Of a DNA stretch of 64,000 bases, positions 21,107 to 64,000 are shown one piece after another; positions within the stretch are counted from its first letter, which is position 1, and each line of letters starts with the position of its first letter. The DNA lies in NCBI GenBank assembly GCA_965243025.1, contig CBDETY010000003.1:1920001-1984000 (forward strand). Direction: 5' to 3'. The notes under the pieces are model-generated. The model was not told the origin of the DNA. It saw only the letters and a list, made by a program, of their open reading frames with translations, and did not search any database. Source of the stretch: Candidatus Latescibacterota bacterium (GTDB taxonomy: Bacteria > Latescibacterota > UBA2968 > UBA8231). The position numbers and the translations under genes were made by a program.

Positions 21107-21171
21107 GGGAATTATACAGATAACTGCGCAAGGGAATTTAAGTGATCTCATCCGCGAATTTAAAGAAAATC

Positions 21172-21180
21172 TGGTATAAT
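21172..21180 (+). promoter_or_regulatory. Extended -10 promoter (TGnTATAAT) pointing into the non-coding repeat block
   Basis: TGGTATAAT exact consensus in an AT-rich stretch. Confidence 0.55.
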
Positions 21181-21304
21181 TTAGTAGAGAAATTGCAGAG
21201 AAACGGACATCCTTCGTCCCACTGTTTAGCTGTGGGATGGGGGATGTCGACTGGCTGGCAATTCCACATGATTGCCTGCTGACCCGGAAACCTGCCAGAA
21301 TGGC

Positions 21305-21850
21305 ACCCTGAATCGGAAGCCCACTCTGATCGAGGAAGGGATGCGCGAGCCCCCTGGGCCTGCAAAGCCGTCGTCGCCGTGGTGAGGAGGAGATCATTTC
21401 GTTTGGTCGACAAGATGGCAGGGCAAGCTGGATCTCTTGCCTGATCTGAGTCGGCGACTCGCAGCGGCATATCATGGCGTTCTCAAAGTCAGGCAGTCTG
21501 CATCCTGCGATCTATCCGGACTCGCAGGTACCTCCCCCTGAAGTCGGCACCGTGGATCGAAAGGCCGCTTTCTGATGGAGGAGAGGATGCGCGATTGCCC
21601 CCTGGGTCTACAAAGCCGTCGTCGCCGAGGTGAGGAAGAAGTCATCCCGTTTGGTCGACAAGATGGCAAGCAGGGTGACTGAGGATTCCTCGGGTGCAGC
21701 CTGAGCTCCAGGCGTAACAGGGGAGGCAGCCGGCAGGGATGTCGCCTTGCCGACCATTCGGCATGATTCGCCGCTTCCCTCCACCAGATGAGCATCGATT
21801 CAGTTCCGCCGGCGATGCGGAAGACGGCAGGCACCGGCAGCGGGATGTCA
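21305..21850 (+). repeat. Degenerate tandem repeat (248-bp period), member of the dispersed island repeat family
   Basis: CAAAGCCGTCGTCGCCG at 21363/21611; CGTTTGGTCGACAAGATGGCA at 21400/21648. Confidence 0.9.
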
Positions 21851-22936
21851 TCTTCCTGGCCATCCGAACAGTTTCGCCCTTTCCTTCGACCGGTGATGAG
21901 TGTAGGGAACCGGAGGAACCTCCGTCGCCAGCAGATCCCGGTAGGTCAGCCGTTTCCTCATCATCCGCGCCGTCAGATACCTTATCCGCTCCTCGGGGTC
22001 CAGGTTGCGGATGTTGTGCTTGCCTGTGATCTCCTTGAGGTATCGGGGCAGATACTTGGGAGACACGTGGTGGTGGGTCCCGTATATCGTTCGCTTCGCC
22101 TTGGCCCAGAACGATTCCATGCCGTTCGTATGGACCTCCCCTCTGACGTATTCCTCCTTGTGGTTGACGGTGTCGTGTCTTCCCGGCCATTCGAAACCAT
22201 CGCCAAAGGTCGGGGCATTGTCGCTGAAAAGGGCGCCCTCCGGGCGTACGTTTTCCTCGGCGAAGGGGAACACGGTCTCGCGTGTCTCATCAGGGACCAC
22301 CTTGGAGGCCACGTCGCCGGTTTCCCGGCAGCGCACTCCGCTCACGGGGGTACTGCCAAACCTCCATTTCCAGTGAAACTTCTTGTCGGCGTGCCTGTTT
22401 TTATCGTCTCCGGCGAACCAGGCTTGATCTATCTCGGCCATGCTGCTGCGTAGCGGTTCGGGATCCGGCCAGGCTTCCCGGAGGCGGTGCAGCATGAACA
22501 AGGCCGACGAATACGCAAGGTCGAGGTCGCTCGCAAGCTGCCTGGCGCTGATTCCCTTCGGTCTGGATTCGTACAGGTGGACGCCGATGGCCCATTTTCG
22601 CAAGGGGATCTTGGAGTGGGACATTCCCCCTTCCGTGCGCACGCTGAAGCGCTTTCGACAGCCGCCGCACCAGTAGGGCATGGGCTTGCGGCCGGGGCAT
22701 TCCGATACCCTGTCGGAGCGGCCGCAGCGCGGGCAGTATATGAATTCGGGAAGGCCGTCTACGGTCTTCCCCCATCTTTTCTCTTCGAACCATTTTTCTG
22801 CGGTTGCGTCATCTGGAAACATGCTGAACAAATCAATTAACGAGATGCTTTTACCATTACTCATCCTTACTGACCTTCGGGCCGTGGAATACCGAACTGG
22901 AGACCTGCGGCCCTTACCAAAAACGATGTGATTCAC
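21848..22936 (-). CDS. IS1595 family transposase
   Basis: CPRCG...CGGC Zn ribbon, EIDQ, FSD, HTNGMESFW, HHHVSPKYLPRYL; alternative start ATG 22864. Confidence 0.93.
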   Translation of the reverse strand: MNHIVFGKGRRSPVRYSTARRSVRMSNGKSISLIDLFSMFPDDATAEKWFEEKRWGKTVDGLPEFIYCPRCGRSDRVSECPGRKPMPYWCGGCRKRFSVRTEGGMSHSKIPLRKWAIGVHLYESRPKGISARQLASDLDLAYSSALFMLHRLREAWPDPEPLRSSMAEIDQAWFAGDDKNRHADKKFHWKWRFGSTPVSGVRCRETGDVASKVVPDETRETVFPFAEENVRPEGALFSDNAPTFGDGFEWPGRHDTVNHKEEYVRGEVHTNGMESFWAKAKRTIYGTHHHVSPKYLPRYLKEITGKHNIRNLDPEERIRYLTARMMRKRLTYRDLLATEVPPVPYTHHRSKERAKLFGWPGR

Positions 22937-23082
22937 GCTCCCATGGCTGTCCTTTCGGTTTCAGTGGGATGTGACTCTGCCGGCGTGGCACCGACAGAAG
23001 GGACTGGGGAAGCGGCAGCGGATGCTGCCTTTCCCCGCGATCTATATGCCCTACAGTGTACCTGGATGGACTTAAAAAGCAA
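22933..23082 (-). promoter_or_regulatory. Sigma70 promoter + two-hairpin leader + 3-codon uORF of the IS1595 transposase
   Basis: TTGCTT-16-TACACT; hairpins GGGGAAAGGCAGC/GCTGCCGCTTCCCC and TCTGTCGGTG-CCA-CGCCGGCAGA; AAGGA RBS then ATGGGAGCGTGA overlapping GTG; related copies at 57.5 kb and 63.9 kb. Confidence 0.7.
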
Positions 23083-23470
23083 ATCGCATTCGAGAGATTC
23101 CGATAAAATCTCGTAATGGCGGCGGGAAACTTTGGTTTTATTGGAGCGGGCAGAGGGCGGCAAGGACTGGGGGAGCCGAGATGTCCGCGGGAGGTGCAGG
23201 AATGCCCGATTTCAAGGGAGTTGGAGCCGGGGTGCAGCGATCCTCCGACGCAATCGGCGAAACGGAGTCGCGCTGCGATTCCAAGGCAGAAAAGACCCGG
23301 TCTCTGGATAATCGAGAGGACGCAGAGGGAGGGCTTTCGGAGGCCCCGGCTACCTCGGGGTTCCGGGCGATTCGGGAACGGTCGAGGTGCCGGCTACGCG
23401 GAACTGCGAGGGGAAGGAAGCCCGAACCTGGCGAACCGGCAGGCCATGAGTGCCCTGGCATGGTTTTTGC
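23083..23470 (+). repeat. Dispersed non-coding repeat family copy
   Basis: Reverse complement aligns with 63590-63870 (CGTAATGGCGRCGGGAAACTTTGG, GGATAATCGAGAGGACGC, GAGTGCCCYGGCATGGT) and with 57300-57480. Confidence 0.88.
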
Positions 23471-23622
23471 AGGACTTCGCTTTGAAAGGGGAGTATTCTC
23501 CGAAGGAGAGTACTAACGGGAGGCAACGGCCAACGGGGGTACTTGTCCCTCCACCGATGAGGAAACGCCGAACGTCCTTGCGGGTTGCTCTGTTTTCTCG
23601 TCTGTTGTCCTTCCGGATGCCC

Positions 23623-23730
23623 TTATGGACTTTGGTCGTTTTTCTGATCGGAGTGGGCAAACATACGCCATATGAGCGTAGCGGTGGCCACCACTATGGC
23701 GAGGGCGGCTATCCAGATTTCAGCAGTCAT
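23623..23730 (-). CDS. Small membrane-anchored protein, possibly frameshifted
   Basis: MTAEIWIAALAIVVATATLIWRMFAHSDQKNDQSP; begins 25 bp after the NYN gene; a basic tail continues in another frame. Confidence 0.45.
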   Translation of the reverse strand: MTAEIWIAALAIVVATATLIWRMFAHSDQKNDQSP

Positions 23731-23754
23731 GCCGGTAGTAGCGGATTCTGAAAC

Positions 23755-24555
23755 TCAGCTCGTCCCCCACAGCTCGGGCCGGAACTCCACGGCCTTGACC
23801 GCCTTTACCTGACCGTCCTCTTCGGCTTTGGCCAGTTCGAACTCGATCATGGTGCCGCGCGTCTTGAACTGGGCGAACTGGGCGTTGGTTACGGGCCCGC
23901 CCTTGGCGGTCTGCAGGTCGGAGATGTGCAGGAAGACATCCTCGCGCACGCTGTCAAACTCCGTGCCGGTCCGCACCGTGAGGAAACCGAACCCCTTTTC
24001 CTCGTTGACCATGTGCAGGATCCCCCTGGCGCGCCGGTCGGAGCCGCGGTCGTCTGGAAGGATCCCTGGCACCAGGTAGCCGGAGAAGTGGTTATCCACT
24101 TCTTGGCGCAGCTCTCTGCTGGTGTTCATGAACGACAGCAGATCGACCCGCTTGCCCCTGTTCTGCAATGCCCGCACCAGGCGCACGAAGTCGCCGTCGC
24201 CGCTGCCGAGCAGCACGTAGTCGAGGTTGGCCGACTGCAGCAGGGCGTCAACGGCCAGCTCGAGGTCGGCGTTGGCCTTGGTGATGACCTGGCCCTCCGA
24301 ATCACGGTACTGCTTCACCTCCTTGAGCACGAGGTGGTACCCTTCCCGCCGCAACCGGGTGCGGTAATCCTCTCTTCGCTGCTGGTACTCGGCGTCCGCG
24401 CTTTCGCGCTCGCTGTTGATCGCCATGTAGGCGTTTGCCCGCAGGACCATCCCCCCTTGGCCCTTGACCAGTTCCCTGACTTGGCGGGACCGGAGGGCGT
24501 AGCCACCGCAGCGGCTCAGGTTGTCCATGTCGAGAAAAATACCGGCTTTCAGCAT
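23755..24555 (-). CDS. NYN (LabA/DUF88) domain protein with C-terminal cold-shock/OB domain
   Basis: FLDMDN, KANADLELAVD, LGSGDGDF; KGFGFL...DVFLHIS. Confidence 0.9.
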   Translation of the reverse strand: MLKAGIFLDMDNLSRCGGYALRSRQVRELVKGQGGMVLRANAYMAINSERESADAEYQQRREDYRTRLRREGYHLVLKEVKQYRDSEGQVITKANADLELAVDALLQSANLDYVLLGSGDGDFVRLVRALQNRGKRVDLLSFMNTSRELRQEVDNHFSGYLVPGILPDDRGSDRRARGILHMVNEEKGFGFLTVRTGTEFDSVREDVFLHISDLQTAKGGPVTNAQFAQFKTRGTMIEFELAKAEEDGQVKAVKAVEFRPELWGTS

Positions 24556-24850
24556 TGCTACTTTCCTATTACGATTTCGAAATGGATTATGTGAATTACC
24601 ACCCTCAGTCGCTCCACTGCAACCGTCCTTCCAGCCCTCCGAGCAGAACAACGGATTACCTAACCACGGACACAGAAAAGCCGCATCCCGCTGCTCTGGG
24701 ACACGGCCTTTTGGCTCCTCGATAACTGTCGTGATCTCAGGAAATGGTCAGTTATTTTCTGTCAAAGTCTACGACGGTTGCCTGTGTTCTGTAATTGGGG
24801 TGTGATGTTCGTCCAATTCGAGAAACTATCAACGGTGGTCTCGTCCAGTT

Positions 24851-24931: not shown

Positions 24932-25556
24932 TGGGCACTCTCCTATTATGGAATGTTGTCCCTGCGAAGGTCTTTCCTTCAATGGGTGTCATGGGGTAGT
25001 CGTATCTCCTTGTCTGGTGAAGCATGTTATCCCCTGCGAAGGTCGATCCTTCTGCGGGGAAAGGAGCAGGATAACATGCGGTAGCCATATTGATATGTCA
25101 ACCCCAAAACCTCAGGGTATGTCCTGTAATCCAGAAATGGTTACAGGCATGCCTTGGGGTGCATATTTGAGCAGGTTGGTTAGGATCGTATATAATTCCC
25201 TAAAAGAATCCATCCGGGAGATACCCGGCGAATGGCGAGGACCAAGGGAAAGATGGTAGACCCGCAGGGTGCGCGTCGTGTGCGCGCACCCTGAGCGAAG
25301 TCGTTTTCGGTCAACGAGGCGGGGAAAAGAGTGCCTTTGATGAGGATGAAAGCAGCCATCGGATTCCTCATCGGGCTGGCATGCGAGTCGGGGGTCCCGG
25401 CCGAGGTGGCGGAGGACCTGCCTCGCCCATGTGCCGCGGAGCCAAGTCGTTCAGGCGTATCAGCGATCCGACCTGATGGCGCGCCGCAAGCAAGTGCTAC
25501 AGGCATGGAACGACTACATTCTGTAGCGGCTTCGCGTTAGTCTCAACCCGTCAACG

Positions 25557-26600
25557 GTGGGCAAACACAATGAAGAGGAAGCTGATTCAGTGGAGAGTAG
25601 TACGGGCTATCGCCTCTGGTTGAAGCTTCGGGTGGGTAAGACGCTGGGAACGGAAGAAGCTGCCCTGACGGCATCGGTGGCCGGCAGGAAAGTCGTGATC
25701 GAGTCCGAGTCGCAACCGCTCAAAGAGGCGTCATGGTTGTTGATCGGATGTCGCGGATTCGAGGCCGAAGACGACGCACGGGATTTCGGCGAGAAGCTCC
25801 GGCGAGCCGCCCATATGGCCGGGTTGTGCGCCCGAGTGGGTGTCGACGCGGGCGAAGACCGCACGGTCTCATGGTTCAATCCGGAGGTCTTGCGAGAATC
25901 CGGTGCCCTGGATCCCGATACACGACTCGGACCCGACATCCATGGCCTCCTGGTCCTGCCGGACGACGGGAAGACGGTGTTCCTTCGCATCGGGCAGCCG
26001 ACGGTGTCGGTACGCTCGAATGCCGGTGATTTCGTGCGGGCTCTTCAGGACGCGTTGCCGGAGAGCGATGAGCCCGCGGGCGATTCCCCCTCGATTCGGC
26101 GGGCGGTGAGAGTGCTGAATATGGCCGAGGTGAATACCGACCCAATCGTGAAGATCGTGATAGCGGTTTCCACCGTCGAAGGGTTGGCGACCGATCCGCC
26201 GTGGACGGACGCACAGAAGGGACTGATCGAGAGTGCCGCCGCTTGGCTTGAGCGCACGCATGGCGACGGCGAAGAGGTCCGCTAGGTCGCCAAGGCGATT
26301 CTCGGAATACGACCCGAGAGCATCCGTCAGCGGATACAGGAGATGCTTAATTCAAATGACCTGTCGGACTTGTTGCGGGATTGGGACGCCCTGTACGAGA
26401 AGCGGAGCCGCTTGTTCCACGGTGGAAGGGGTGGAAGGAAGGACGGCGGCGAGCAGCGGGGCGAACACTTGGAGGAATCCGAGCTTCACGCCTTGGGTCA
26501 AGAGGCATTGAGGCTCTGTGGTAGGATTGTCCTATCCATGGCAAAGCGAGAACGGATTCCGGTTCCCGGACGAGCTAGCGTGCATTTCGGTGTCGAATGA
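25557..26600 (+). pseudogene. Apea-like HEPN domain protein interrupted by one in-frame TAG
   Basis: ORFs 25557..26285 and 26343..26600 are in the same frame; VSTVEGLA then LYEKRSRLFHG (RxxxxH). Confidence 0.7.
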
Positions 26601-26644
26601 GTTTGATCAGGCGGCCGGTCGACGAGGCCGACGCCGTGCTTGAG

Positions 26645-26715
26645 TAGGTTGCCGGGATTCCAATCCGATCACGGGTCGAACCGGGTAGGCCGTGAGTGCC
26701 CCAGAAATCGATGGT
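26645..26715 (+). repeat. Short copy of the dispersed non-coding repeat family
   Basis: CCGGGATTCCAATC identical to the reverse complement of 63194-63207; GGGTCGAACCG..AGG.CGTGAGT shared with 33260-33285. Confidence 0.85.
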
Positions 26716-26808: not shown

Positions 26809-29800
26809 TCAGTTTTCAGGACCGGCAACAGATTTAGGGTTTTCCGCCACCATCCGCCACGATTTACCAGGGAGGATCCATTTCCCGGCGGTCTGAGTCG
26901 GATTCCGGATGGGAAGCACTTGGTAGCCGTCGTCATCCGTCTTCTCCACTACATAGAGGTACCACGAATCCGTCCCCTGCTTTTCCGCCGTTTCAAACGC
27001 CTTGCCTATCTGAGCGCGCGTCAGCTCCACGACCTCCTCTTCATCCCAGGGACGGCCCCTCCCCTTCACCTCGATCAGCCGAACTGCCTTGGTCCTCGGG
27101 TCAGTACTGCGGATATCCCAGCCGGTTTGACGGGGATCTCCAAGTTTCGGCTCTCGGCCTGCTTCTCTCTCGTATTGCGCCGCAACCATTCGGTACTCTT
27201 CGTCCCCGAGAGCCGTAGGCCGGTCTTCGTTGGAGATTCCGGTGCCGGCTGCATCGTCCTCTTCAGGGTTCGGCGCGATCTCCCCTTTCAGCGAACCCCT
27301 CAACTGTTCCGCCAGGGCGTTCTGTCGGGCAAGAGCTCTGTCAATGGTGTAAGAGCCGCCGGTTGAACCGGACTCCGGGCGCTCAAGCTCACCGGGTTGC
27401 CCTGTCTCGTCGTCGACCGCCTTCCCATCGCCGGACAGATTAGACTTTCCAAGCCCAGAGGCGCCGGAAGTGCGCGTCTGGTCCGTAGGAGCAACCGCGG
27501 CGTGCCTTTCGTCCCCGGTCGGTGCAGCGGTACTCGGGGGTTGAGTCGGCTCGTCCCCAGGATCGGTTACTTCCTCATGATCCCAATCCAGCCGGAAGGC
27601 TGGCGGCAATTCGAATTGGGGAACATGGGAACGCCGGAACTTTTCTGCGGCAAAACGAAAATCCTGATCGACGTCAATTGCCGTCAGCATGCCAGTGAGA
27701 TCGGCGGCAAGATCTGCACGCTGTCTGAACGAAAATTCTCGTAGGAGTTCCTTGGCCGCGTCGGACGCGAACTGAAGCGGGCGGCCAGCGACGGTCAGAG
27801 CGCTCTCGTGCAGGCGGGCGTTCACCGGCACATCCTCGATGTCACCGTCAAGCAACCGAACCTGGAGAGTAAGCTCGCGAACGCAGATCAGCCTGGGGAG
27901 TTTTTCTGTCTCGATTCCGACTCCGTCGCCTTCCTCTTGCTCATTCCCCCGAACCCGTTGGAGAAGCTGGCAGGTAAGGTCGAACCTGGAAACCCAATCA
28001 TCGGAGAGTGGGGTCTCTTCTCCGCAACGCCACTTCAAGATGACCGAAGACGACAGGAGCGGAAGGCCAATCGCTTCCGCAGTGCCAAGTTGCTGCGGCC
28101 GGGAACGGCCAAGGTGTCCGCCCGTGACAATTCGCACTTGGTGTTTGCTTGGGAGAAATCTCCGATCTTCGATGTCGTCAAAATAGGTGTTGTCGGCCTC
28201 GGTCAAGAAAACCCAATCCCGTTCAGCAAAGACCGTTGCCTCCTTGGTGGCTTCCTCCCATCGTTCAGATAGCCCCGTTTCTCCTGAACAGTCTTCAAGG
28301 CAGTAGGCATATGCGGTCGGGAGCACGTAGCGCACCTCGTTCGCCAACCCTTCGGGCGATAAGCGGGCACGCTTCCATACCTCCCGGATATAATCCATGG
28401 CTTGGCTGCCGGTTGTGGTCTCCGGGAACTCAAAGGGTAAGTCGGGATGTTCCAACTCCGTCCGCAGCACATCTTCGATCTGATCCAGCGGTACGACCCA
28501 ACCTCCCAGCCCGCCTCGGAGACTACCCCCGACCCGCCGGACGATCCGATCAAGCGGGAAACGCCGGTTCTCACTGGACGGCACTGTGAGTTCTTGGAGA
28601 GTTTGATCGAATAAGCCCCTGTCCGTGTTCGACGTTACCTGTTCGCGGCACTCGGCAAGGAGCTGCGCCAGCTCTTCGGCATCGAGTCGGGAGCCGAGAG
28701 CCGAGAGTCTGCGGAGCGATGTAGCTTCCGGAATGACCGTACCGAATTCCACCCCTTCCTGTTCCAATTCGGACACGAGTTCGGATGAAAGTTGCGCAAC
28801 CGGCGCATCTTCCCGTGCTGGGTCGGGCCGTGGAAGTACGTCCTGCGGACGCCGGAGTTCGCCATCTTCACAGGGCACCCATGCCAGTTTGGATAGCTTG
28901 ATCACCCAGACGCTCGGGGTTCCATGGCTGATGTAGGAATGGTAATAGAAATACCAGCACTGCCGCCGCCCCGTGGCATGGAGGACTTGGGAACCATCCT
29001 CGATCCAGGCAGCCAGAGCCCCTCGGAGTTCTCTGGGTGAATCCGGACTCGGAAGACTTGGCTCGATGTCGAAGTCCAGAAGGCGGTAGCCGCTGTCATT
29101 CGATTCACGGATCGTGCCAAGGTCGAGGCCAAGGAATTCCGCCACACGCTGACGATTCCCTCGGAAAGCAAACTCCCGCAAGGTCCGCACTTCGATCTCT
29201 CCCTTTGCGCCAGCTTTCTCGAAGAAAGCCCGCCATTCCCTTGAGTTTGCATGCTTTGGATCCTGGTCCAAGTAATCCGCCGAGATCGACGGGTTCGCCG
29301 GAAACAGGAGGGCGCGATCCCCACCGTGTTCAACATACGGAGTTGCCAGAAGTGCCTCGCCAACCGGAAGGCTCGCTGATCCGCTCTCGGAATCCACAAG
29401 CACGTGAGTCAACAGGTCGGGGCGATTTCGATGTTTCGACCAGTGCCCAAGTGATACGAGCACCGACCAGTCCGGATTCGCAGATTGCATTAGATCGTTC
29501 ACGGCAGCCTCGACGATCTCCTGAAGACTGATGCCGCGGGCGTGCCTCTCGATCCAATCCCACGCTTGCGAAAGGAGCGTCGGCTCTGGCTCGTTGCGTC
29601 TCCGTTGGCGAAGGGTGGCAACCCATTCGTCCTCCAGGCGATTCTCGTTCGGGACGAACGGCTCCACGAATTCGCGGGTTTCGGATCCGCCCGGCTCCCT
29701 TTTGGAAGGAATCCTCTCGTTGAGGAATACGACCTTGGTCACCGGGTGCCATTTGCCGGCGAGGGAACGAATGCAATAAAGATCGACATCCCCCCAGACA

Positions 29801-31371: not shown

Positions 31372-31579
31372 CGCGACCGTCCAGGCAACCTGATATGCCC
31401 TCGGTTCCTTGAACCCATCCACCAACGGGGAGCACCACCGAGCCGAGGAGTCAGGAGACGACTCAGCAGGAGTACCCAATTAAGCAGGCAAGAAAATAAG
31501 GCTCCCTGCATGAGAACAAAGTGAGAATGCGTCTTCGAAAGCAGAAAGGTGGGAATGGTGGGGGAGGCCGCGGGCGGTC

Positions 31580-33310: not shown

Positions 33311-33354
33311 TTGAAGCGCGCAAGGAGAACCCACTTCCTCTTAGCACGCGGTTG

Positions 33355-36111: not shown

Positions 36112-36164
36112 TTCTCAAGCTAAAGGATAGGCGCAACGGATTGCACCTACCCTCCGGTCGGCAT

Positions 36165-36248
36165 CTACCGGCTGCGCCAGTGGTTCAGGACGATCTGAAT
36201 CACTTCCAGCGCGACTTCCAGCAGAATCGCCAACCATCTTGGCATCAT
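36165..36248 (-). CDS. Small hydrophobic peptide (27 aa)
   Basis: MMPRWLAILLEVALEVIQIVLNHWRSR*; ATGA overlap with the upstream stop. Confidence 0.5.
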   Translation of the reverse strand: MMPRWLAILLEVALEVIQIVLNHWRSR

Positions 36249-36634: not shown

Positions 36635-36651
36635 GAGGGTTCTCCTTCGCG

Positions 36652-40475: not shown

Positions 40476-40490
40476 GAGTGTCCCTGCCTG

Positions 40491-48550: not shown

Positions 48551-48621
48551 CACAGCCTCTCCATTCAAAGTTCTAACTGTTCGCCTCCCCCAAAATACAT
48601 AAAGAGGTAAAAAACAAGCCG

Positions 48622-50499: not shown

Positions 50500-50612
50500 A
50501 TCGCCATTGTCGAAAATCCCTCCTTTTTCCCGTTTCCGGGGTTTTTTCTAAGGCTTCGGGAGGCTCCTTAGTGCCTGAAAAAAATACAGCCCCATTACTT
50601 TGTTTTCGAAAA

Positions 50613-51782: not shown

Positions 51783-51784
51783 TA

Positions 51785-51813
51785 TTGACAAACATTCTCG
51801 AAATGGTTAGTAT
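51785..51813 (+). promoter_or_regulatory. Sigma70 promoter of dndBCDE
   Basis: TTGACA-17-TAGTAT, 36 bp upstream of dndB. Confidence 0.7.
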
Positions 51814-51849
51814 TAGTATACGCACAACCTTGGCGCTTGGGAAGAAAAA

Positions 51850-54466: not shown

Positions 54467-54480
54467 TCAGAGCCTAATAA

Positions 54481-56472
54481 ATGATATTGGATGAAATCAC
54501 GCTCTATAACTTCGGTCTGTACTCAGATCGGCAGACCATTTCGCTTACTCCGGCTTCAGCTAGCAAACCGGTAGTCCTGCTCGGGGGATTGAACGGTGGC
54601 GGGAAGACGACCTTTCTGGACGCGCTTCACCTCTGTTTGTTTGGGCCCCACGCAAAGATCTCCAATCGTGGGTCGCTTTCCTACGGAGAATACCTGAGCC
54701 GTTCCATCCATCGCGGAGTGAAAACACTCGAGGCCGCGATTGAGATTACGTTTCGTCATACAAGCGAAGGTCAAGAAGACAGCTACAACCTGGAACGATC
54801 CTGGTACGTCTTTAACGGTAATTGTAGAGAGGTTTTCAAAGTTAGGAAGAATGGAGTCGCAGATTCAGCTCTTTCCGAAAATTGGGCAACACAGGTTGAG
54901 GATTTTGTCCCACCGAACATAGCCCACTTGTTCTTATTCGATGGTGAACAAATTGAAGGCTATGCCTCGGACGAAAAATCCTCCGAATTGATTGGTGCAG
55001 CGATACAGAACCTGCTTGGACTGGATATGGTCGATCAATTGGAGAAAGATCTTCTCGTTTTCGAGAGACGGAAACGATCTGATAAGAAAAATGATGTGGC
55101 CCTGGCGGAGATAAAAGGCGCAGAAATTGATTTGCTCGACCTTCGAAGACGAGCAGATGAACTGACCCAAGAGCGTGCTTCTCTGCAAACGCATGGGATC
55201 GACCGCGTGGAACGTGAGCTGGAAAAAGTAGAAGATAAATATCGCAAGCTTGGGGGCGATCTTTTCGATCAGCGTTTGAAATTGGAACGGTGTTTGTGTG
55301 AGGCCGAGACGGCTGTTTTTCAGAGCGAGAATGCGCTACGGGAGGCAGCTGCTGGTTTATTGCCGTTGATGATGGTCGAGGCCCTTATTGAATCCGCTCA
55401 CACAAGAGACCGACATGAGGAAGATTGTCGGCGCGCGCGAGAAGTGGTCGATGTGCTGCAGGCACGTGATCGTGCAGCACTGAAAAAACTTCGGTCTCAA
55501 TCTCTGTCCGAAGACGTTCTTGAAACGATGAGGCAGTTTTTCAAAGCCGACCGTTCAGACCGCAGGGCACTAGGGAAGAAAGAAACCCTCCTTGGTCTTT
55601 CCCCCGAGATACGGACCGATTTTCACAACTTGATGCGCGGAGACCTTGGGAAGGCGTTGGCCAATGCCAGCCAGGAACTTAAGCGGCATAAGGAACACGA
55701 AGCCCGAGCCGAGGCTGCTCGAGCGGAATTCGAGAGCATCCCGAGCGCTGATACGATTAGCGAGGTCGCCAGAGAACGCAACGAGCTGAAAGGGGAGCTT
55801 GGAACGCTCAAGGCACAACATGCTGCTTTGTCCAGAGAGATTGATCGGTTGTACAGAGAAATAGATCGGAAAGGCCAAGCCCTTACCCGCCTGCACGAGG
55901 CAGAAGCCAAAGCGATGAATGATCGAGATGACCGGACCCGCACTCTGCGGCACGCTGCGAAAGTTCGCGGAACACTCAAGGCGTATCGCAAAGCGGTTGT
56001 CGAACGCCATGTACGCCGCATTGAGCAGCTCGTTCTCGAAAGCTACAAGCAACTCCTCCGAAAAGCTACCCTTGTGACCCGACTGTCCATCGACCCTCAA
56101 CAGTTCTCGATCACATTATTCGGCGGCGAAGGACGGATTCTCACCACGGAGCGTCTGTCGGCCGGTGAACGGCAACTTCTTGGTATTGCCCTGCTCTGGG
56201 GGCTTGCAAAAGCATCGGGCCGGCCCTTGCCGACTGCCATTGATACGCCGTTGGGAAGGTTGGACGCTGGGCACAGGATGCATCTCGTCGAGCGCTACCT
56301 GCCCTTCGCCAGTCACCAAGTCTTGCTGCTGTCTACCGACGAGGAAATCGCGGGCGATTACCTCGACCGGCTTAAGCCGTGGATTGGGAAGACCTATTTC
56401 CTTGATTATGACGACCATACGGAAAAAACTCGAATTGTTCCTGGGTATTTCCAAGAAATGGAGGCAGCGTAA
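54481..56472 (+). CDS. dndD: DndD SMC-like ATPase
   Basis: GLNGGGKTT, FLFDGE, LSAGERQ, IDTPLGRLD, LLSTDEEI. Confidence 0.96.
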   Translation: MILDEITLYNFGLYSDRQTISLTPASASKPVVLLGGLNGGGKTTFLDALHLCLFGPHAKISNRGSLSYGEYLSRSIHRGVKTLEAAIEITFRHTSEGQEDSYNLERSWYVFNGNCREVFKVRKNGVADSALSENWATQVEDFVPPNIAHLFLFDGEQIEGYASDEKSSELIGAAIQNLLGLDMVDQLEKDLLVFERRKRSDKKNDVALAEIKGAEIDLLDLRRRADELTQERASLQTHGIDRVERELEKVEDKYRKLGGDLFDQRLKLERCLCEAETAVFQSENALREAAAGLLPLMMVEALIESAHTRDRHEEDCRRAREVVDVLQARDRAALKKLRSQSLSEDVLETMRQFFKADRSDRRALGKKETLLGLSPEIRTDFHNLMRGDLGKALANASQELKRHKEHEARAEAARAEFESIPSADTISEVARERNELKGELGTLKAQHAALSREIDRLYREIDRKGQALTRLHEAEAKAMNDRDDRTRTLRHAAKVRGTLKAYRKAVVERHVRRIEQLVLESYKQLLRKATLVTRLSIDPQQFSITLFGGEGRILTTERLSAGERQLLGIALLWGLAKASGRPLPTAIDTPLGRLDAGHRMHLVERYLPFASHQVLLLSTDEEIAGDYLDRLKPWIGKTYFLDYDDHTEKTRIVPGYFQEMEAA

Positions 56473-56855
56473 TGGTTGTTGACCACATCAGACTGTCCCA
56501 GCAGGCCAAGGATCAGCTTGTCAAGCTCAAACGGGTCACCGGAATTGAACACTGGAATGTGCTATGCCGCTGGGCATTGTGCGTCTCGTTCGCCGAGCCG
56601 AGTTTCCCTCCTTCCTCAAAGATTCCTGCGGACAGCAATGTAGAGATGAGCTGGAAAGTATTTGGGGGTCGGTACGCCGGTCTCTATATGGCACTTTTGA
56701 AAGAGCGCTGTGTGCGCGACGGTCTTGGCACGGATAGCGATACCCTATCTCAACAATTCCGGCTGCATCTCCACCGTGGCATTTCCTACCTCGCAGGAAA
56801 CAGGAATATACGTAGTATCACGGACCTTATTGCGCTTCCAGTTGCTCAAGAATAG
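56472..56855 (+). CDS. dndE: DndE
   Basis: WNVLCRWALCVS, EMSWKVFGG, LHLHRGISYL. Confidence 0.95.
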   Translation: MVVDHIRLSQQAKDQLVKLKRVTGIEHWNVLCRWALCVSFAEPSFPPSSKIPADSNVEMSWKVFGGRYAGLYMALLKERCVRDGLGTDSDTLSQQFRLHLHRGISYLAGNRNIRSITDLIALPVAQE

Positions 56856-57299
56856 ATATCGTCTTCGTTTGCCGCGATACGGGGCTGGCCCTCCTTGGGT
56901 GGGTTCCCGTCCAGCGATGAACTTGCCCCCCAACTACTGTTCTGTAATGCGACAGAACGATTGGTCCGACGCAAATAGGCGCACCTGAAACGCTCGCTCA
57001 ACCTCGCTCAACGAAAATGGATATCTCCGTAAAGTAGGGAAAGGGGGATCTCAGGGGACCCCCAGGAACAAGAAGAAAAGGGCAGCAAATCAACTACTAA
57101 TGGATTTACCTAAATTCTGCTGTCCGGTTGTCCAAAGACTGGGTTCACCTGACGTATTTGCCGGGGCAGCTCGCTGGTTTTTTGATCGCTTGCCCTGCAC
57201 GAATCCTCTGGCGATCAGGATCTCCTCCTCATCGGCGAGGCCCTTGCCGTCGAGGAATTCGGCCAGGAGGTCGTTATCCCTCAGTGGCACAGCGACCCG

Positions 57300-57660
57300 C
57301 CATTCCTGAAATCTCCCGGATAACACCGCGACTGGCGTCCTTCGAAGCGTAGCCTCCGGCGTCCTCTCGATTTTCCCCAGACAGTCGTTTCCCCCGACTC
57401 GACCTGAACAGATGGCGGAATCGCAGGGACTTCGTTTTCGCCGATTGCTGGGGGACTGCCTTCCCCTGCAAGGCCGACCTTTCCCTACTGCCAGGCCAGC
57501 CTTTTTCGGAATACTCTAGAGGCACATGCAACGGGGAAGCCGGCAGGATCCGCTGCCGCTTCCCAGTCCTTCTGTCGGTGACACGCCGACAGAATCACCT
57601 TCCCACTGAAACCGAAAGGACTGCCATGGGAGCGTGAATCACACTATTTGTTGAGGGCAG
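57300..57660 (+). repeat. Orphan copy of the IS1595 upstream region and leader without a transposase
   Basis: TCCTGAAATCTCC, CGTCCTCTCGATT, AGGCACATGCAACGGG, both hairpins, ATGGGAGCGTGAATCAC then an early stop. Confidence 0.9.
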
Positions 57661-57802: not shown

Positions 57803-60800
57803 TCACGCCATGAGGCCGTCAGCCCCGCGAAACCGCTGAACCGCCATTTCGAACGGCAGGGCATCTTCCCAGATTGCGCGACCGATTCGGAAGCGTGCCT
57901 CGCCCTCCGTGATTTCGAGTTCAATCTCGCCTCGCGGTTTGCGGGCAGTGTCCGCCGCTTCTTGAAGGGACTCGTAGTCCGACACTGCCGTCTGGAGGTG
58001 CGCCCCGATTCCGAATACGACCCGGAGCCCCTCGCGGATCATCTCGCTGGTTGGGGCGTCGTCATTTAGGGGAACCACGCACAGCGCGAAGCGGTCGCCG
58101 AGGGAGCACGCCTGCTTCGCCTGGACGGGCGTCATCTTCACTATGTCTCCTTTCGTGCTTTTGACTTCAATGAACGTGGAGCCGGGGGTGCCCTCCAGTT
58201 CGAGCCAGATCTCCTCATCGTTCTCGACGAAGTCGCTCTCCACCTCGAAGTCGGACCCTATCCCCGTGCGGCGCACGGTCAGTCCACAGCCTTCTAACTC
58301 CTGCTGCAGGAGTTGTTCGACCCGACGGCCGATCTCCTGGTTCCGCCGGACCTTCTGCCGGTCCTTCTTCTGTTCCTCGATCGAGTCTATGATCTCCGGA
58401 TGCTCGCAGATCTCGGTCGCCAATTGGCGGAGGCGGTCGACATCGCCAGCCACCTCCGCTAGGTCATGCATTGACCGGATCAACATCAGCCGTTGGTCTT
58501 CGTCGACGGCCACGGCCCGAAGCGCGAGGTCTGAGGGCCTGATCCCCAAGGCGTCCAGGAGTTCCTTACCCCGGGCACGGGACAGGAGTTCCTGCGTTTC
58601 CGGCGAATCCGCGAGGAGCTCTGCCAGCGATTCAGCGGATGCCGTCTCAGCGCGACCGCTGCTTGCATCGATCGGCACCCACCTCCGGTGGCGGAGCGGC
58701 GTGAGCCAAGCTGCACGGTAGGTCTTGTGGCAGTCGCCGCATTCGCAGTCGACGCCGAATTTATGGAAAGCTCTCTCGTCCGACTCTGCCACGTACTCGA
58801 TTAGGAACCGGACGAATTCCTTGGCACGCCTCCTGCTCTTTCGCGCCGTGTCGATCAATCCGATGTCGGATTCCTGAAGACACGCCACGTCTGATACCTC
58901 GACCTCGAGCGTCGACTTGTGGATGCCCTCAGGCGGCTCGTCGGGCAGGAATGCCTCAACCACTCGCTTTGTCTCGATCAACGGGGAGGCGTTCAAGTAG
59001 CCGCTCGCCACCAGCCTATCCCACACCTCGGGTTCGGTTTGGTCGACGAAGGCTTCCGCAAGTACTTTGCCCTTGGGGAACAGTGAACCGAACCGCCGTG
59101 CGCCTTCGGGCCAGATCGCAAGCGGCGCCAAGGGCTTTTCGGGTGCATCGCGTCCCCGTTCGAGACACAGCACGGCGAGGACGTCATCGCCCTCTCCGGC
59201 CGTCGGCACGGGGTAGCCCTCCAGAAGTTCAAGGTAGTCCGGGTGGACGGCAATCCAGTTAAACAGCCTGACAGCCGCCGGAGCCAGGAGCACCTTGATC
59301 GTTCCGTCCCGGCACTCCTCCTTCACGTGCGCCAGGAGTTTATCGAGCACCTCCCGTTCTTGCCTCGGCTCAAGGAGTTGGGTCAATACGTCCATCTCTG
59401 CCTGCCTGTCAAGCAGTTCGTTGCGAAACTCCAGGCCGAATGCCTCCGCGATGTCCTTGAGCTCGTCGGAGATCCCCTGGTCGCGAAAGAGGCCCTTGCG
59501 GGTTCGCAGGCCACCGGCTTGGGTAGGAAGTAACTTGTGCTTGTCGAGGATTCCTGTTTTTCCTGAGTCACAGACAAGTTCGAAAAAGGACAGGAGCCAG
59601 GACAGGCTTTCCCTGCTCGTCAGTAGCTGTTGCAGACCCTCCACGCTCTCTGCGTCGCTGACCAACTGTGCGACCTTTTCTATTGTTAAGGCCTCGTCCA
59701 TTTCCTCCCGCGGTTTGTCCAAGAGCTTTGCCCAGTTGGTGAGGTTTTTCGACCAGGAGTCCAGTTCCTCGCAGCAGGGAAGCCGCTGCTGGGCCTCGCT
59801 CCACAAGGACATGAGAGTCCAGAGCTCGGTTGAATGGGCTGGGTCTTCGGTCGTCGGCACCCACGACGCTTGCGGCTGTATCCAGTCCCCACCCAGAGTC
59901 GGCATCAGCGGCGTTGCCCGGGCTTTTCGGACCAGTTGAGTTAAGAGGCCGCGAAAAAAAGCATCTCCGTCAACCCAGTCCGGATGATGCGCGGTGTCGA
60001 AACCCAGCACTTGGTGGGCCTTGGTCCACTTCCTCTGGGCACACCAATCCAGGATCTGCTCTTGGTGCCGAACTGATTCCAGTAGCAATTGCTTGTTCTT
60101 ACGCACCCCTTCGGAATCTCCGGTCAAGAAGATACCGTTGCGGTCTTCGTGGGGCTTGAACCGTTTGCTGTTCACCGTAGCCGGAAGCCCCAGACCTTCG
60201 CTGCCTATCAGCGGGAAAACCACGAATAGTTTCGCAGTTGTCTCGTACCCCTGATCGATCTGAAGTCCGGATTCGCTTGGACGGAGCTGGAGTGCTGCGC
60301 AACATTCGCCTTCCCCTTCCGCGACTGCCACGTAGCGGGCCAAGTCCTCACCTGCCTCTGCGTACTGAATCAATAGCTCGCCGTCCGCACTCCGGTTGCC
60401 GCGTGTAAGGCTCCACCTTGCGTCGGAGGTCCCGACATGGATACTCGTAATCTCCGGACAGAAAGCCAGGACTAGCGGTCCGCACCGGCGAAGCTCCTCC
60501 AACCCCGCTTCGGCCAGCCCGCGCCCTGGTGGCGTGAATTGGTAGGCAAACGAGGTGTTCGGGCCCGCCCCCGGCTGCGCAGGTTTGACCGACTGCACGA
60601 ACGAGTCCCATGACCGATTCATTGCACAACCCAACTCTTCAACGGTCCTCCCAGTACGATCCAGCAGGAAGGTAAATGCTTTCAAGTCGTCGAGCCGCCC
60701 CGCAACTCGGATTTTCCGGGACAGGAGGTGCGTGGTCAGGAATCCCGACCCGAACTGACCGATGTATTGGTCGTCCTGAAACTTGGTCGAGCCATGGTAC

Positions 60801-61057
60801 ACGAGATGCGCTATCTCATCGGACGTAAATGGCTTGCCGTCGTGCGCGAACCGGAACTCCTTCGCCGAAACGCGCATCTCGATGCGGACACCTTTGCCCC
60901 TTGCCACATCCCGGGCGTTTTGAAGCAATTCCCAGATCCAGCGTGCGCTCAGAAGAGTTCGGTTGTTCTCGATTCGCTCAAGGTGCTTGAACACGGTTTG
61001 CCCAATGGTTTCCGCAACGACGCGGTCCTTGGCATCGTTCAGTTCTTTTTCGGTCAC
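57803..61057 (-). CDS. Sacsin-like HATPase + DUF3883 protein (second, distantly related)
   Basis: WELLQNARD, HDGKPF, GSTK...IGQFGSGFLTTH; C-terminal GIGSDFEV...FIEVKST. Confidence 0.88.
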   Translation of the reverse strand: MTEKELNDAKDRVVAETIGQTVFKHLERIENNRTLLSARWIWELLQNARDVARGKGVRIEMRVSAKEFRFAHDGKPFTSDEIAHLVYHGSTKFQDDQYIGQFGSGFLTTHLLSRKIRVAGRLDDLKAFTFLLDRTGRTVEELGCAMNRSWDSFVQSVKPAQPGAGPNTSFAYQFTPPGRGLAEAGLEELRRCGPLVLAFCPEITSIHVGTSDARWSLTRGNRSADGELLIQYAEAGEDLARYVAVAEGEGECCAALQLRPSESGLQIDQGYETTAKLFVVFPLIGSEGLGLPATVNSKRFKPHEDRNGIFLTGDSEGVRKNKQLLLESVRHQEQILDWCAQRKWTKAHQVLGFDTAHHPDWVDGDAFFRGLLTQLVRKARATPLMPTLGGDWIQPQASWVPTTEDPAHSTELWTLMSLWSEAQQRLPCCEELDSWSKNLTNWAKLLDKPREEMDEALTIEKVAQLVSDAESVEGLQQLLTSRESLSWLLSFFELVCDSGKTGILDKHKLLPTQAGGLRTRKGLFRDQGISDELKDIAEAFGLEFRNELLDRQAEMDVLTQLLEPRQEREVLDKLLAHVKEECRDGTIKVLLAPAAVRLFNWIAVHPDYLELLEGYPVPTAGEGDDVLAVLCLERGRDAPEKPLAPLAIWPEGARRFGSLFPKGKVLAEAFVDQTEPEVWDRLVASGYLNASPLIETKRVVEAFLPDEPPEGIHKSTLEVEVSDVACLQESDIGLIDTARKSRRRAKEFVRFLIEYVAESDERAFHKFGVDCECGDCHKTYRAAWLTPLRHRRWVPIDASSGRAETASAESLAELLADSPETQELLSRARGKELLDALGIRPSDLALRAVAVDEDQRLMLIRSMHDLAEVAGDVDRLRQLATEICEHPEIIDSIEEQKKDRQKVRRNQEIGRRVEQLLQQELEGCGLTVRRTGIGSDFEVESDFVENDEEIWLELEGTPGSTFIEVKSTKGDIVKMTPVQAKQACSLGDRFALCVVPLNDDAPTSEMIREGLRVVFGIGAHLQTAVSDYESLQEAADTARKPRGEIELEITEGEARFRIGRAIWEDALPFEMAVQRFRGADGLMA

Positions 61058-61350
61058 CTGCCAGTCTCCAAGAGTAAGGACTCCACCTGCCCTGTTTTAA
61101 GGCTCCTCTGTGCCTCGACCGGTCGGTTCTGGTGGAGCGGCTTGAGTTTCACGAGAACGCTCCCAGGGGGGCTCGACATGTTCCGCAACCAGTAGTGTGA
61201 AGGGCGTCCACAGCGGAAGAGGGAGTTTCGGCCCGGACGAGGTACGGAAATCGTTATCCTTCGAGGGCGTTCCTCCAACCGTCTTCACCCGTTCTGTGCA
61301 TCAATCCTGACCACATGGGCAGTCCCCCTCTGAGAAGTAGCAAGTTTATT

Positions 61351-62388
61351 CTAACTGGCCATATTTTTCCCGTCGGTACTCCACACGTTATCCCGTTCAA
61401 CAACTATAACCATACAAAATTTGGACAAGTCTTTTCCTTTCCAAAAGGATATATCGTATAAGGAATATGAAGACCAGTTGGTTATTACCAGAATACACGG
61501 GTTACTCTGAACGCGAGATGATTTTTTTTCAAGAATTCGAATGACTTCTTTGCTGACATCAGCCAAAGTTTCCCCAGGCTGTTTAGCGACACGTTGGATT
61601 GTCTCTTCTAGATTTTGGTATCCTGCCTTGATGGTCCATTTGCCCAAATCTGGTACAGAGGTTATTTCGATGTCATAAACGGTACCTTTGATAGCTGCTC
61701 TATAATCAGGGAATTCATTCTCCCCATTCGGATATTTTTGTTCTTCTGAAATGGTTATTTTCTTCTTCAGAATCCACAGTGAAACCTTATTCCAAGTAAT
61801 TTCTTCGGAGATCTCATTGCTATTCATCATCTCTGGTGAGAACATGGATATATTTGTTGGAGAATCGCTGGCAAGTATTTCCCACGGTGAATCGGCGGGA
61901 TTGTTCAAAACAATAAACATATCTTTTCTTTCTGCATCTATATCAAGGATTTCCTCGAAAAGTGGTAGAGATTTTTCAGTTCCTTTCTTGTTGCGAACGT
62001 GGAGAACTTTCCGAGCCTTTTTCCTGAATGGTTCCTCTTTTGTGACTATTGGAGAAGGAAGATGTGCTAACTGCTTGGTTACCGTAGTCTCAAGAGATTT
62101 AGAGAAAAGAATGGTTACGGAAGTAACTCCTTCGGCAAAATCGGGATCAGCAGCCTCAACGGTGTTATAATGATCCTGAATTGTTTTTACAATATTTCCC
62201 TCATCATTACCTCGTGAGATCCCTGGTAAATCTCCTAAATGGTACCACAAACGATAATCCCACATCTTTAAAAAGATGCGGTTCATTTCTCCAGGCGATG
62301 CCTCAATAATTATCGGGCATCGCATCAAAAGTGGATGATCCTGCTCGACACGACGCACGGGCAGTCCGTATGGAATTCTCCCATTCAT
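61351..62388 (-). CDS. AT-rich hypothetical protein, possible PD-(D/E)xK-type nuclease
   Basis: 345-aa ORF; ENEFPDY...YDIEIT, KKSSR. Confidence 0.6.
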   Translation of the reverse strand: MNGRIPYGLPVRRVEQDHPLLMRCPIIIEASPGEMNRIFLKMWDYRLWYHLGDLPGISRGNDEGNIVKTIQDHYNTVEAADPDFAEGVTSVTILFSKSLETTVTKQLAHLPSPIVTKEEPFRKKARKVLHVRNKKGTEKSLPLFEEILDIDAERKDMFIVLNNPADSPWEILASDSPTNISMFSPEMMNSNEISEEITWNKVSLWILKKKITISEEQKYPNGENEFPDYRAAIKGTVYDIEITSVPDLGKWTIKAGYQNLEETIQRVAKQPGETLADVSKEVIRILEKKSSRVQSNPCILVITNWSSYSLYDISFWKGKDLSKFCMVIVVERDNVWSTDGKNMAS

Positions 62389-62619
62389 ATAAATAAATCC
62401 TCCTAGTTAGGATCAGAGGGATCGGCGTTGGTGAAGATTTCCCACGCCGGCTGTTCTGGCTTTTACCGAGTCCTTTCGTCCATCCATTTCTCCGGTTTCA
62501 TGGGTTATACAGGGCCAAGTGGGGGAACAAAGGAAGCCGTCGTTCGATTCGATTCAATAAGGTTTTCCACATCGCTTCCGTGATTGAGGGCAAACCAATG
62601 GAGGCCGTTTTTTCGCCCC

Positions 62620-63870
62620 TGTTGGCCGATGTTCCCTCCCTGGAGGAAATCCAGTATAGTTCAAAAACCCGGCTCGCTGCGCCAAGAACGCCTCTGGATC
62701 GAAGGAGCCGCTCTCCCTCTCCTAGGCTTCCAAGGGCGCCACTCCTGCGATCTCGCGGATCGAGGTGCTCAGGTAGACGGCGGCCAGCAGGTTCGCGGCA
62801 GGTGCCGCATGCGATGTCGTGGTGAACCGGGGCCAAGGCGTAAACCGGATCGCCGTTGTCTGAACCCCGGGAGTTCCGGGCGCTTGCCCGTGAGTCGATT
62901 ACAAGGGCTTCGCCGACGAGGATAGTCCTGCCGAGTCAGCTGCCCCTCCCGCGACTTCCAAACGACCCCCCGATCCAGCGGGTAACCGAGGAATCCTCTA
63001 TAGAAGCATTCCTGTCTCCGGCAGCGCCCGTTGGTCTAAGCAAGCCCCACGTCAGGGATGGTGCTATTCTTCCCCGGCCGGGGTGGGACTTCCTGTTTCT
63101 CAGGTCCCCGAACATTGGCTCTCCTTTGGCACTTGTCAATCAAACCGCATCGACCCTCAGGAACTCACGGCCTGCCCGGTCCGACTCGGATCCGATTGGA
63201 ATCCCGGGGTATCCGCTCCTTTCCGAGCTGTCTGTAACGGAACCCAAGCGGATGAGGATTTCTTCGTTGGGGAACCCCTCGAATCGAGACCCCACCGGAT
63301 CGTATCGGCGGAACCGCTCCTGGAAAGCGGCCAGTTGCGGATTTAAGGTGGAGGCCCTCGCAGTTCGCTCCTCAGCACCCGGTTTTTTCGCACCTCGCCG
63401 CTCAGTTCCTGAAATCTCCCCGAATCCCGATCCGGACTCAGATCCCTCCTCGATCAGGAGCGGTGGCCTTCCGATCCCCGGTACCGATTTCCCGAGGGGT
63501 GTGCAAGGCACCGACAGGATCGCCTCGCGAATCGTCGGCTTCTGCATTCTCCGTAGAAGAATGCCCTCTTCCGCAGGCGCGATCTCAGCAAATACCATGC
63601 CGGGGCACTCGCGCCTCGACCCGCCGATCCTGAAATCTTTCGGATAAACCGGCGATTGCCCGCTTCAGAATCTTTGCCCCTCCGAAGCGCCTCCTTCCGC
63701 GTCCTCTCGATTATCCGCAGACCCCCGGTCTTCTCCGCCTCGTAGCGCGACTCCGTTTCCCAGATCTCCGGAGACTGCCCCTCCCCTGACCTGCCCTCTC
63801 CCCCCCTTGCAGAATGCGCCAAAGTTTCCCGTCGCCATTACGGGGTTTTTTGAATTCCCCGAAAGCCGAC
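62620..63870. repeat. Longest block of the dispersed non-coding repeat family
   Basis: 62925-63870 matches the 21.5, 23.1, 26.6, 31.6 and 33.1 kb blocks in reverse complement; 62690-62920 carries similar motifs in direct orientation. Confidence 0.85.
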
Positions 63871-64000
63871 TTGATTTTTTAATCCAGCGGAATACACTAT
63901 AGGCACATGCAACGGGAAGCCGGCAGGATCCACCGCCGCTTCCCCAGTCCCTTCTGTCGGTGCCACGCCGACAGAGTCACATCCCACTGAAACCCGAAAG
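63871..64000 (+). promoter_or_regulatory. Promoter + two-hairpin leader, third copy (cut by the window end)
   Basis: TTGATT-16-TACACT; GGGAAG.CGGC/GCCGCTTCCC; TCTGTCGGTG-CCA-CGCCGACAGA; CCCACTGAAACCCGAAAG. Confidence 0.75.

Follow-up and report, generated by a model that had tools for sequence, protein, structure and literature searches.

A defence island of Candidatus Latescibacterota probably carried by a 45-kb transposon of the IS1595 family

The subject of this report is a defence island in the genome of a Candidatus Latescibacterota bacterium (assembly GCA_965243025.1), analysed in a stretch of 64,000 nucleotides that we call the window (contig CBDETY010000003.1, positions 1,920,001 to 1,984,000, forward strand). 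An earlier note, made from the letters of the sequence, had described six blocks of degenerate non-coding repeats lying on both sides of an IS1595 transposase and at junctions between defence genes, and had proposed a large or nested IS1595 transposon family in which such modules, as recombination or binding platforms or as a long structured RNA, help to accumulate defence cassettes. The G+C content of the window is 64–72% up to approximately 21.1 kb, with a dip to 56% at 15–17 kb, and 44–62% in the island from there on. This island can be delimited to the base: it came as one transposon insertion that splits a host gene. The inserted element, which we term A, occupies genome positions 1941107–1986021 (44,915 bp), from window position 21107 to 2,021 bases beyond the window's end, and window 21107–64000 makes up its left 95%. 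Its outer parts are as follows (window positions, with strand where one is assigned).

21099–21106: left copy of the 8-bp target duplication, CTCGTAGC; the right copy lies 2,022–2,029 bases beyond the window's end
21107–21216, plus strand: outer terminus with terminal inverted repeat (GGGAATTAT...), a sharp boundary shared by 12 of 12 end units
21107–21847, plus strand: outer non-coding arm, from the terminus to the transposase stop codon; two open reading frames (ORFs) overlapping it gave 0 Pfam families
21848–22864, minus strand: terminal IS1595-family DDE transposase, 338 aa from the ATG at 22864 (PF12762, E 9e-29; NF033547, 133 bits, cutoff 75)
22865–23065, minus strand: putative transposase promoter and leader of approx. 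190 nt, from copy comparison
23066–23540: inner flank ('inner arm') of the left end unit, patchily common to other units
63117–64000, plus strand: right end unit, comprising its inner arm (63117–63887) and the start of its putative promoter and leader (63888–64000), the rest lying beyond the window's end

Termini, target site and end units

BLASTN of window 20800–23900 showed that the segment from 21107 to approximately 23175 recurs about 12 times in the genome at 71–95% identity, and in 12 of 12 unit copies the similarity begins at the identical base, GGGAATTAT or GGGATATAT. The right terminus of A lies at genome position 1986021. The first 20 nt of its two termini are inverted and match at 19 positions, the single difference being ATACAG against ATATAG, while 76–110 nt of terminal similarity are present in all elements of the family described below. 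Within the genome, the first 110 nt of A matched only the ends of units, bar a 28-nt piece at 998300 and three further matches of 15–24 nt and low significance (E 0.13–0.51). The octamers outside the two outer ends of A are reverse complements of each other, and the same holds for three other pairs of ends.

The unoccupied site is preserved in two congeneric genomes, G001 and G002. In G002 the flanks of A abut and have exactly 8 bases in common, the CTCGTAGC octamer being present as a single copy, and the open frame that A splits runs uninterrupted; in G001 the two flank alignments overlap by 7–8 nt. The split host frame (window 19410–21131, minus strand, plus its continuation to the right of the element) belongs to a multi-copy family with no Pfam domain and with 40 and 31 DNA matches in the two congeners. 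Contigs assembled from four public sequencing runs over window 19500–24500 were fragmented pieces, with loose ends at 21051–21055 and 21104 that may come from paralogues of this multi-copy gene. More widely, 20 of the 22 listed public runs (10 studies; no RNA run among the 22) contain part of window 21107–23540. Runs labelled sponge metagenome contain about a quarter of the sampled words of this segment, and contigs of one such run match the unit at 90–100% identity. A tRNA scan of window 21000–64000 returned no tRNA genes.

Element A and every other giant of its family are bounded by two inverted end units of approximately 2.1 kb. From the outside inwards, a unit consists of the terminal inverted repeat, a non-coding arm of approximately 740 nt, a transposase gene reading toward the terminus, and a putative promoter with a conserved leader; inward of the leader, a variable inner flank carries one or two more direct copies of an arm unit of approximately 120 nt. 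The arm opens with an A+T-rich stretch, and an extended −10-like sequence reading inward, TGGTATAAT, is invariant in six of six aligned arms. Two direct copies of the 120-nt core unit follow in the arm of A (21300–21425 and 21544–21673), detected in self-comparison as a 72-nt direct repeat (21349–21420 and 21597–21668, 89% identity, 248-nt spacing). The terminal transposase has a conserved start, MSNGKS..., and a 362-aa form beginning at a GTG is an upstream extension that is not conserved. Its leader is composed of a −10-like box, two hairpins, the invariant ATGGGAGCGTGAATCAC, which can be read as a three-codon upstream ORF, and a hairpin ahead of the ribosome-binding site. Both the promoter at TGGTATAAT and that of the transposase are candidates recognised by inspection. 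Leader copies are 80–97% identical; between subfamilies, whose transposases show a synonymous divergence of 0.34–0.41, identity is 82–88% for the leader and 80–90% for arm start and leader together. A part of the inner flank that we term X holds another copy of the arm core unit, direct relative to the unit, and the core unit is found in direct orientation on both sides of the transposase gene. The transposase, arm and terminus of the right unit are located beyond the window's end.

A family of giant elements with a common central module

The genome holds at least four intact giant members (34–49 kb), plus several decayed ones. The three intact giants other than A are listed here by genome position.

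1304677–1339122: element B, 34,446 bp, duplication GAACGAGG
4234635–4283179: element C, 48,545 bp, duplication CGACGCGA
6017644–6058067: element D, 40,424 bp, duplication ACCAGAAC

With A, the four giants flanked by duplications add up to 168,330 bp and make up 2.5% of the genome. Over their first 20 nt, the inverted termini are identical in B and C (20/20) and match at 19 of 20 positions in D. At the empty sites of B and D the flanks overlap by 8 nt in both congeners, and at that of C they are contiguous, with the last approximately 10 nt unaligned. Congener G001 has members of its own: a giant of 25,871 bp with the duplication AACGCCAC, and a small one of 4,574 bp with the duplication ATCGAGGC, in which 2.7 kb of cargo lies between a single end unit and a 76-nt solo terminus. 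An 8-bp duplication was present in all six elements for which both ends were found. The termini, duplications and empty sites, together with nesting seen in element C, bear out the proposal of a large IS1595 transposon family. The nested site in C (4267948–4270051) has an end unit, starting at 4268279, that abuts a second unit truncated within its transposase gene, and the interrupted unit has no continuation afterwards. Decayed clusters of the family lie at genome 852–1036 kb and 3.30–3.35 Mb; neither of the end units at 852184 and 3354081 has a matching partner, copies of the central transposase (below) lie at 879, 940 (a fragment), 953 and 1024 kb, and a further fragment lies at 3312 kb.

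The end unit is present in eight of 41 genomes searched, the source genome included, with strong matches in both congeners and in one other genus. A search with the terminal transposase against the genome collection yielded 219 relatives, the best 80 of the 219 at 35–44% identity. One relative, from a Thioclava metagenome-assembled genome, could be delimited by copy comparison to 2,813 bp (record L110, 2895–5707; loci L110–L120). It shares the terminal motif (GGGGAATTATAT.../...ATATAATTCCC) and has passenger ORFs downstream of a transposase at 38% identity, so these termini are those of a wider, passenger-carrying subgroup of IS1595. At least four copies of the Thioclava element are 100% identical, one of them full-length twice over. 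One of its two passenger ORFs has, by inspection, a DPPY motif like that of DNA methylases, and the two are therefore probably a restriction-modification pair.

All giant members have a central module in common, whose parts in A are the following (window positions).

36118–42736: central module, approx. 6.6 kb, 79–94% identical to elements B, C and D
36960–37952, minus strand: second (central) IS1595-type transposase, 330 aa (PF12762, E 6e-33; NF033547, 159 bits, cutoff 75)
38760–39440: ankyrin protein
39864–40358: SWIB-DnaJ protein
41123–41863: GmrSD_C/Excalibur protein

The module also contains conserved ORFs of no known family, and in B, C and D additionally RadC; its parts are present, in unchanged order, in the 25.9-kb giant of G001. 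The terminal and central transposases are 50% identical and have the invariant D, D and N/E columns in common. The central gene is intact in seven of seven genomic copies, with ratios of nonsynonymous to synonymous substitution (dN/dS) of 0.07–0.32, as against 0.29–0.87 for terminal transposases (10 copies); no inverted repeats of its own were found for the central transposase. Within the module of A, direct repeats of approximately 190 nt (38647–38836 and 39502–39691, 83% identity) flank the ankyrin gene, which itself has five internal repeats of approximately 100 nt. As the 190-nt segment is present once in the other elements, the ankyrin gene seems to have arisen within the central module by an insertion or a duplication. 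Two central-module ORFs were compared with the ESM Atlas, yielding a best score of 0.82 for one and no match for the other, and 13 ORFs of no known family gave nothing usable from Pfam (E ≤ 1) or PHROGs.

Repeat blocks, relics and cargo

The earlier note had placed its blocks 1 to 6 at window positions 21300–21850, 22933–23470, 26645–26715, 31580–33310, 57300–57660 and 62620–64000. Comparison of the window with itself and a BLASTN search of the whole genome with the six blocks as queries (179 high-scoring segment pairs at E ≤ 1e-5, six of them self matches) found repeated DNA in every block at about these coordinates. The pairs include 22957–23029 with 63922–63994 (73 nt, 95%, inverted), 22927–22969 with 57601–57643 (43 nt, 98%, inverted), 31603–31664 with 63405–63466 (62 nt, 76%, inverted) and 26672–26705 with 33259–33292 (34 nt, 88%, direct), and there are long matches among 22927–23050, 57521–57643 and 63922–63994. 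As had been observed, the core region is free of the modules: the six blocks gave no match in window 1–21098 (E ≤ 1e-3). Some boundaries move. Block 1 starts at 21107 and block 5 near 57165, and in block 6 the family repeat is confined to 63117–64000, while 62620–63117 has one outside match, 62678–62873, among the matches listed. Two of the six words said to be shared between blocks were covered by a shuffle test and the other four were read in the sequence; GAGATTTCAGGAA occurs three times exactly against 0.07 expected, a count reached in none of 100 shuffles, and CTGATYGAGGAGGGATCT occurs twice against 0.22 expected, a count reached in two of 100. The parts of the blocks that lie within the cargo are listed here.

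26649–26705, plus strand: relic Z' (block 3), a 57-nt inner-arm piece (part of Z), direct repeat of 33236–33292 and inverted repeat of 63160–63207
31582–31740, plus strand: relic X (block 4), a partial inner arm with a further copy of the arm core unit, in left-unit orientation
31875–33040, minus strand: IS630-family insertion sequence (IS) splitting the relic
33041–33331, plus strand: relic Z (block 4), the same partial inner arm continued, collinear and inverted with respect to 63117–63267
57165–57660, plus strand: relic (block 5) of inner-arm piece, putative promoter and leader, in right-unit orientation, ending approx. 46 nt before a transposase start codon would follow

Block 1 is the outer arm, blocks 2 and 6 are leader and inner flank, and blocks 3, 4 and 5 are partial inner flanks within the cargo. 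The modules are the arm, the promoter and leader, and the inner flank of end units, with partial copies of the inner flank, and the idea of a distinct scaffold on the kilobase scale falls away. Block 4 is collinear, in inverted orientation, with parts X and Z of the inner flank on the right, and it is indeed split by an IS630 element, which is 98% identical to at least two other genomic copies and gives split matches to NF033545. The internal relics are partial, 74–91% identical and unequal in extent; their collinearity and orientation suggest scars of recombination or nesting among family members. Identity between end units is mosaic. For the two ends of A it is 100% from approximately unit position 723 to 1823, a span that takes in the entire transposase gene, and 59–98% outside; for those of C it is 100% over positions 1–600 and then 34–99%. 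Synonymous divergence (pS) between the terminal transposases of A and the left end of C is 0.025, against 0.22 between the central transposases of A and C. Such a pattern is what gene conversion and homologous exchange within the family could produce, and we favour these processes as the probable origin of the internal relics and of cargo turnover; homologous recombination between the repeats may, judging from these alignments, help to shuffle cargo.

Linkage of the modules to IS1595, as claimed in the earlier note, is strong. Among 78 inner-module copies outside A, 76 have a family transposase gene no more than 30 kb away, as compared with 18% of random positions, and 44 lie inside B, C or D. 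Genome-wide repeats of the repetitive extragenic palindrome or miniature inverted-repeat type are ruled out by the same count. A hairpin repeat of approximately 68 nt at 35939–36006, which recurs at 13 other genomic places with 82–92% identity, has no relation to the IS1595 family and does not resemble the ends of the IS630 elements of the window.

The cargo of A, outside the central module, comprises the following (window positions, with strand where one is assigned).

23755–24651, minus strand: NYN nuclease with a weak cold-shock domain, from domain matches
25469–26651, plus strand: block with a counterpart in element C (94% identity), which there too lies next to an inner arm
26809–31479, minus strand: TmtA-like protein of 1,556 aa (sacsin-type ATPase; NO VEIN domain at the C-terminus)
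43898–56855: PbeA, a PbeC-like protein, a GmrSD-type nuclease and DndA–E (phosphorothioate DNA modification and restriction)
57803–61057, minus strand: second TmtA-like protein, 1,084 aa
61351–62388, minus strand: 345-aa ORF without known family

The gene at 23755–24651 had been called HEPN, and its domains give no support to that call. The block 25469–26651 includes a 242-aa ORF without known family (25557–26285) and, outside the central module, is all that A shares with another giant. Segment 33337–33898 is 80% identical to genome 5508354–5508916, far from family members, and is cargo with a chromosomal paralogue. The other giants are loaded differently: B with a type I restriction-modification system, an ORC/Cdc6-like kinase protein and three WD40 proteins; C with Cas3-like and Cas8-like proteins, an FN3 protein of 3,069 aa, and LRR and WD40 proteins; and D with an FN3 protein of 3,162 aa, a C25 peptidase and an IS21. 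Members of the family thus carry variable cargo, as the earlier note's transposon proposal implied. Its classes are anti-phage systems (Dnd/Pbe, type I restriction-modification, Cas3-like and TmtA-like), large repeat proteins (WD40, LRR, FN3 and ankyrin) and giant surface proteins.

Competing readings and known systems

We consider it highly probable that the island in the window is a large IS1595-family transposon with end units, cargo and a central module, and that the modules of the earlier note are the cis-acting parts of its end units together with relics of such parts. Several points weigh against this reading. Each giant is single-copy, and neither repeated movement of one element nor transposition itself was directly observed. 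As candidates for the enzyme that moves the element, the terminal transposases are weakly constrained, and the giant of G001 keeps only approximately 240 nt of its left transposase gene. An inner inverted repeat was not found in the window or the genome (the reverse complement of the first 30 nt had no match in the window at up to 9 mismatches), and the reading offers no origin for the duplicated end unit. A consensus scan for sigma-70-type promoters over 21050–23600 returned 0 sites, and the case for relics as scars is made from collinearity and orientation. The arm units and leader are more conserved than synonymous sites, and hence have a function. To our knowledge, moreover, 26–49 kb and three transposase genes lie beyond the range of IS1595 elements that carry passengers.

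An ordinary compound transposon, in which two autonomous ISs chanced to flank a defence island, would also have inverted, transposase-bearing units at both ends. Compound transposons of IS1595-like elements are known, for example around mcr-2 in the account given in part of PMC5424208, and a degenerate terminus-like motif, noticed by inspection, overlaps the transposase −10 box approximately 2.13 kb from the end. However, homology between units continues 70–700 nt inward of this candidate inner motif and of the transposase promoter, and the first 110 nt of A match essentially outer ends. None of the four unpaired units in the genome has a matching 8-bp duplication with terminus-like sequence, and among three further ends in the congeners one belongs to the 4.6-kb cargo element and none to a solo IS. 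A single central module, subject to purifying selection, is common to all giants, which argues for their descent from one element and not for separate captures, and makes chance flanking quite unlikely. The proposal that the modules are dedicated recombination or binding platforms capturing defence cassettes, much as integron attachment sites do, draws on the position of relics at cargo junctions and on their geometry: Z' and Z are direct repeats around the gene for the 1,556-aa TmtA-like protein plus X, the truncated leader and inner arm at 57165–57660 and the full right-hand copy at 63117–64042 form direct repeats on either side of the second TmtA-like gene and the gene next to it, and the core unit has the same direct arrangement about the transposase gene. 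Yet no tyrosine or serine recombinase domain was detected in the scanned ORFs (38 of A and 89 of B, C and D), in which the only other recombination enzymes are IS630, IS481-like and IS21 transposases. Element B has no internal relics, the 4.6-kb member has its duplication though it is almost without inner modules, most cargo junctions in A have no module, and the relics vary in completeness and divergence as decay predicts. We regard capture platforms as very unlikely.

A long structured non-coding RNA, formed by the arm or by the arm and the inner modules, is in our estimation a highly doubtful alternative. The invariant −10-like sequence that reads inward from the terminus, the conservation of the arm beyond synonymous sites and the variation of some stem positions only as G-C/G-U would suit it. 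Against it, an Rfam scan of window 21000–64000 at E ≤ 1 returned only a chance mir-204 match in the cargo, the copies vary in unit number and spacing, and RNAalifold gave compensatory change in none of 24 pairs for 15 arm units and in one of 21 pairs for 17 leaders, although such covariation tests are weak at the modest sequence divergence available. Lastly, long open frames do overlap the modules (62856–63647 and 21472–21834, for example), as they commonly do at this G+C content, and could be taken for decayed copies of a protein gene. Six ORFs over the modules gave 0 Pfam families, indels among the six arms are mostly short (82 of 1–2 nt against 12 of 3 nt), and the repeat spacing of 248 nt is not divisible by three; decayed genes are accordingly the least credible origin, and the view that the modules are no conserved protein is upheld.

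Under the preferred reading of one large IS1595-family transposon, a DDE transposase would bind the outer repeats, move the entire element and generate the 8-bp duplication. A transposase gene beside each end could supply the protein near the end that it must bind, and the leader could control its translation. The repeated arm units might serve as protein-binding sites or template an inward-directed (antisense) transcript. Where family members recombine or nest in one another, relics would be left behind and cargo would be added and exchanged. There is a lesser possibility, which we think unlikely but worth stating, that these elements are a distinct class of giant bacterial transposon and not enlarged ISs. 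Its machinery would be the strongly conserved central transposase, SWIB-DnaJ, RadC and the core genes of no known family, with the 120-nt units of arms and inner flanks acting as multi-site binding platforms that pair ends 45 kb apart and as crossovers at which members of the family would exchange defence and eukaryote-like cargo. If the large IS1595-family transposon of the preferred reading is active, its family would be a simple vehicle for moving entire defence islands and host-interaction genes within the lineage.

Passenger genes in IS1595-family elements are already known, and we found no description of giant IS1595 elements, or of members of the present family, in the open-access literature. 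Described passenger-carrying 'transporter ISs' (tIS) reach approximately 8 kb. IS1595 elements of this type are small and have a single transposase gene, whereas A has two terminal genes and a central one. The concept is credited to Siguier et al. 2009 where that work is cited in PMC3129680 and PMC8496243. The passages of PMC5704250 on tISCpe8 and MTnSag1/tISSag10 give elements of 1.7–2.0 kb with 25-bp repeats, 8-bp duplications, one transposase and one cargo gene. The present elements are like these in their IS1595-type DDE transposase, terminal inverted repeats, 8-bp duplication and passengers between the ends (PMC5704250, same passages). They differ in size (26–49 kb for the giants, plus the 4.6-kb member), in their inverted end units of approximately 2.1 kb, and in having three transposase genes, long arms and a central module. 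In the mcr-2 compound transposon, as presented in the relevant part of PMC5424208, two IS1595-like copies, each of 714 bp with 18-bp repeats at both ends, flank and mobilize the cargo. Two IS1595-like units flank the cargo here as well, but as far as that account allows comparison, our end units differ in having no detectable inner repeat and our interior in having a conserved module. The Thioclava element resembles the giants in terminal motif, related transposase and passenger ORFs, and is unlike them in that its single transposase starts 76 nt from one end and is followed downstream by the cargo, in having no long non-coding arm, and in its multiple identical copies per genome. Tn10 and Tn5 likewise have inverted, transposase-bearing end units and move as one via their outer ends; each of their ISs is, however, a complete element able to move by itself, and no family module is conserved in the cargo. 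Set beside these systems, what is new is the size, several-fold beyond the range known for IS1595-type elements, together with end units of 2.1 kb in duplicate, long non-coding arms, several different giants in a single genome, and the central module with its strongly constrained transposase, whose conservation next to weakly constrained terminal transposases is an unusual arrangement.

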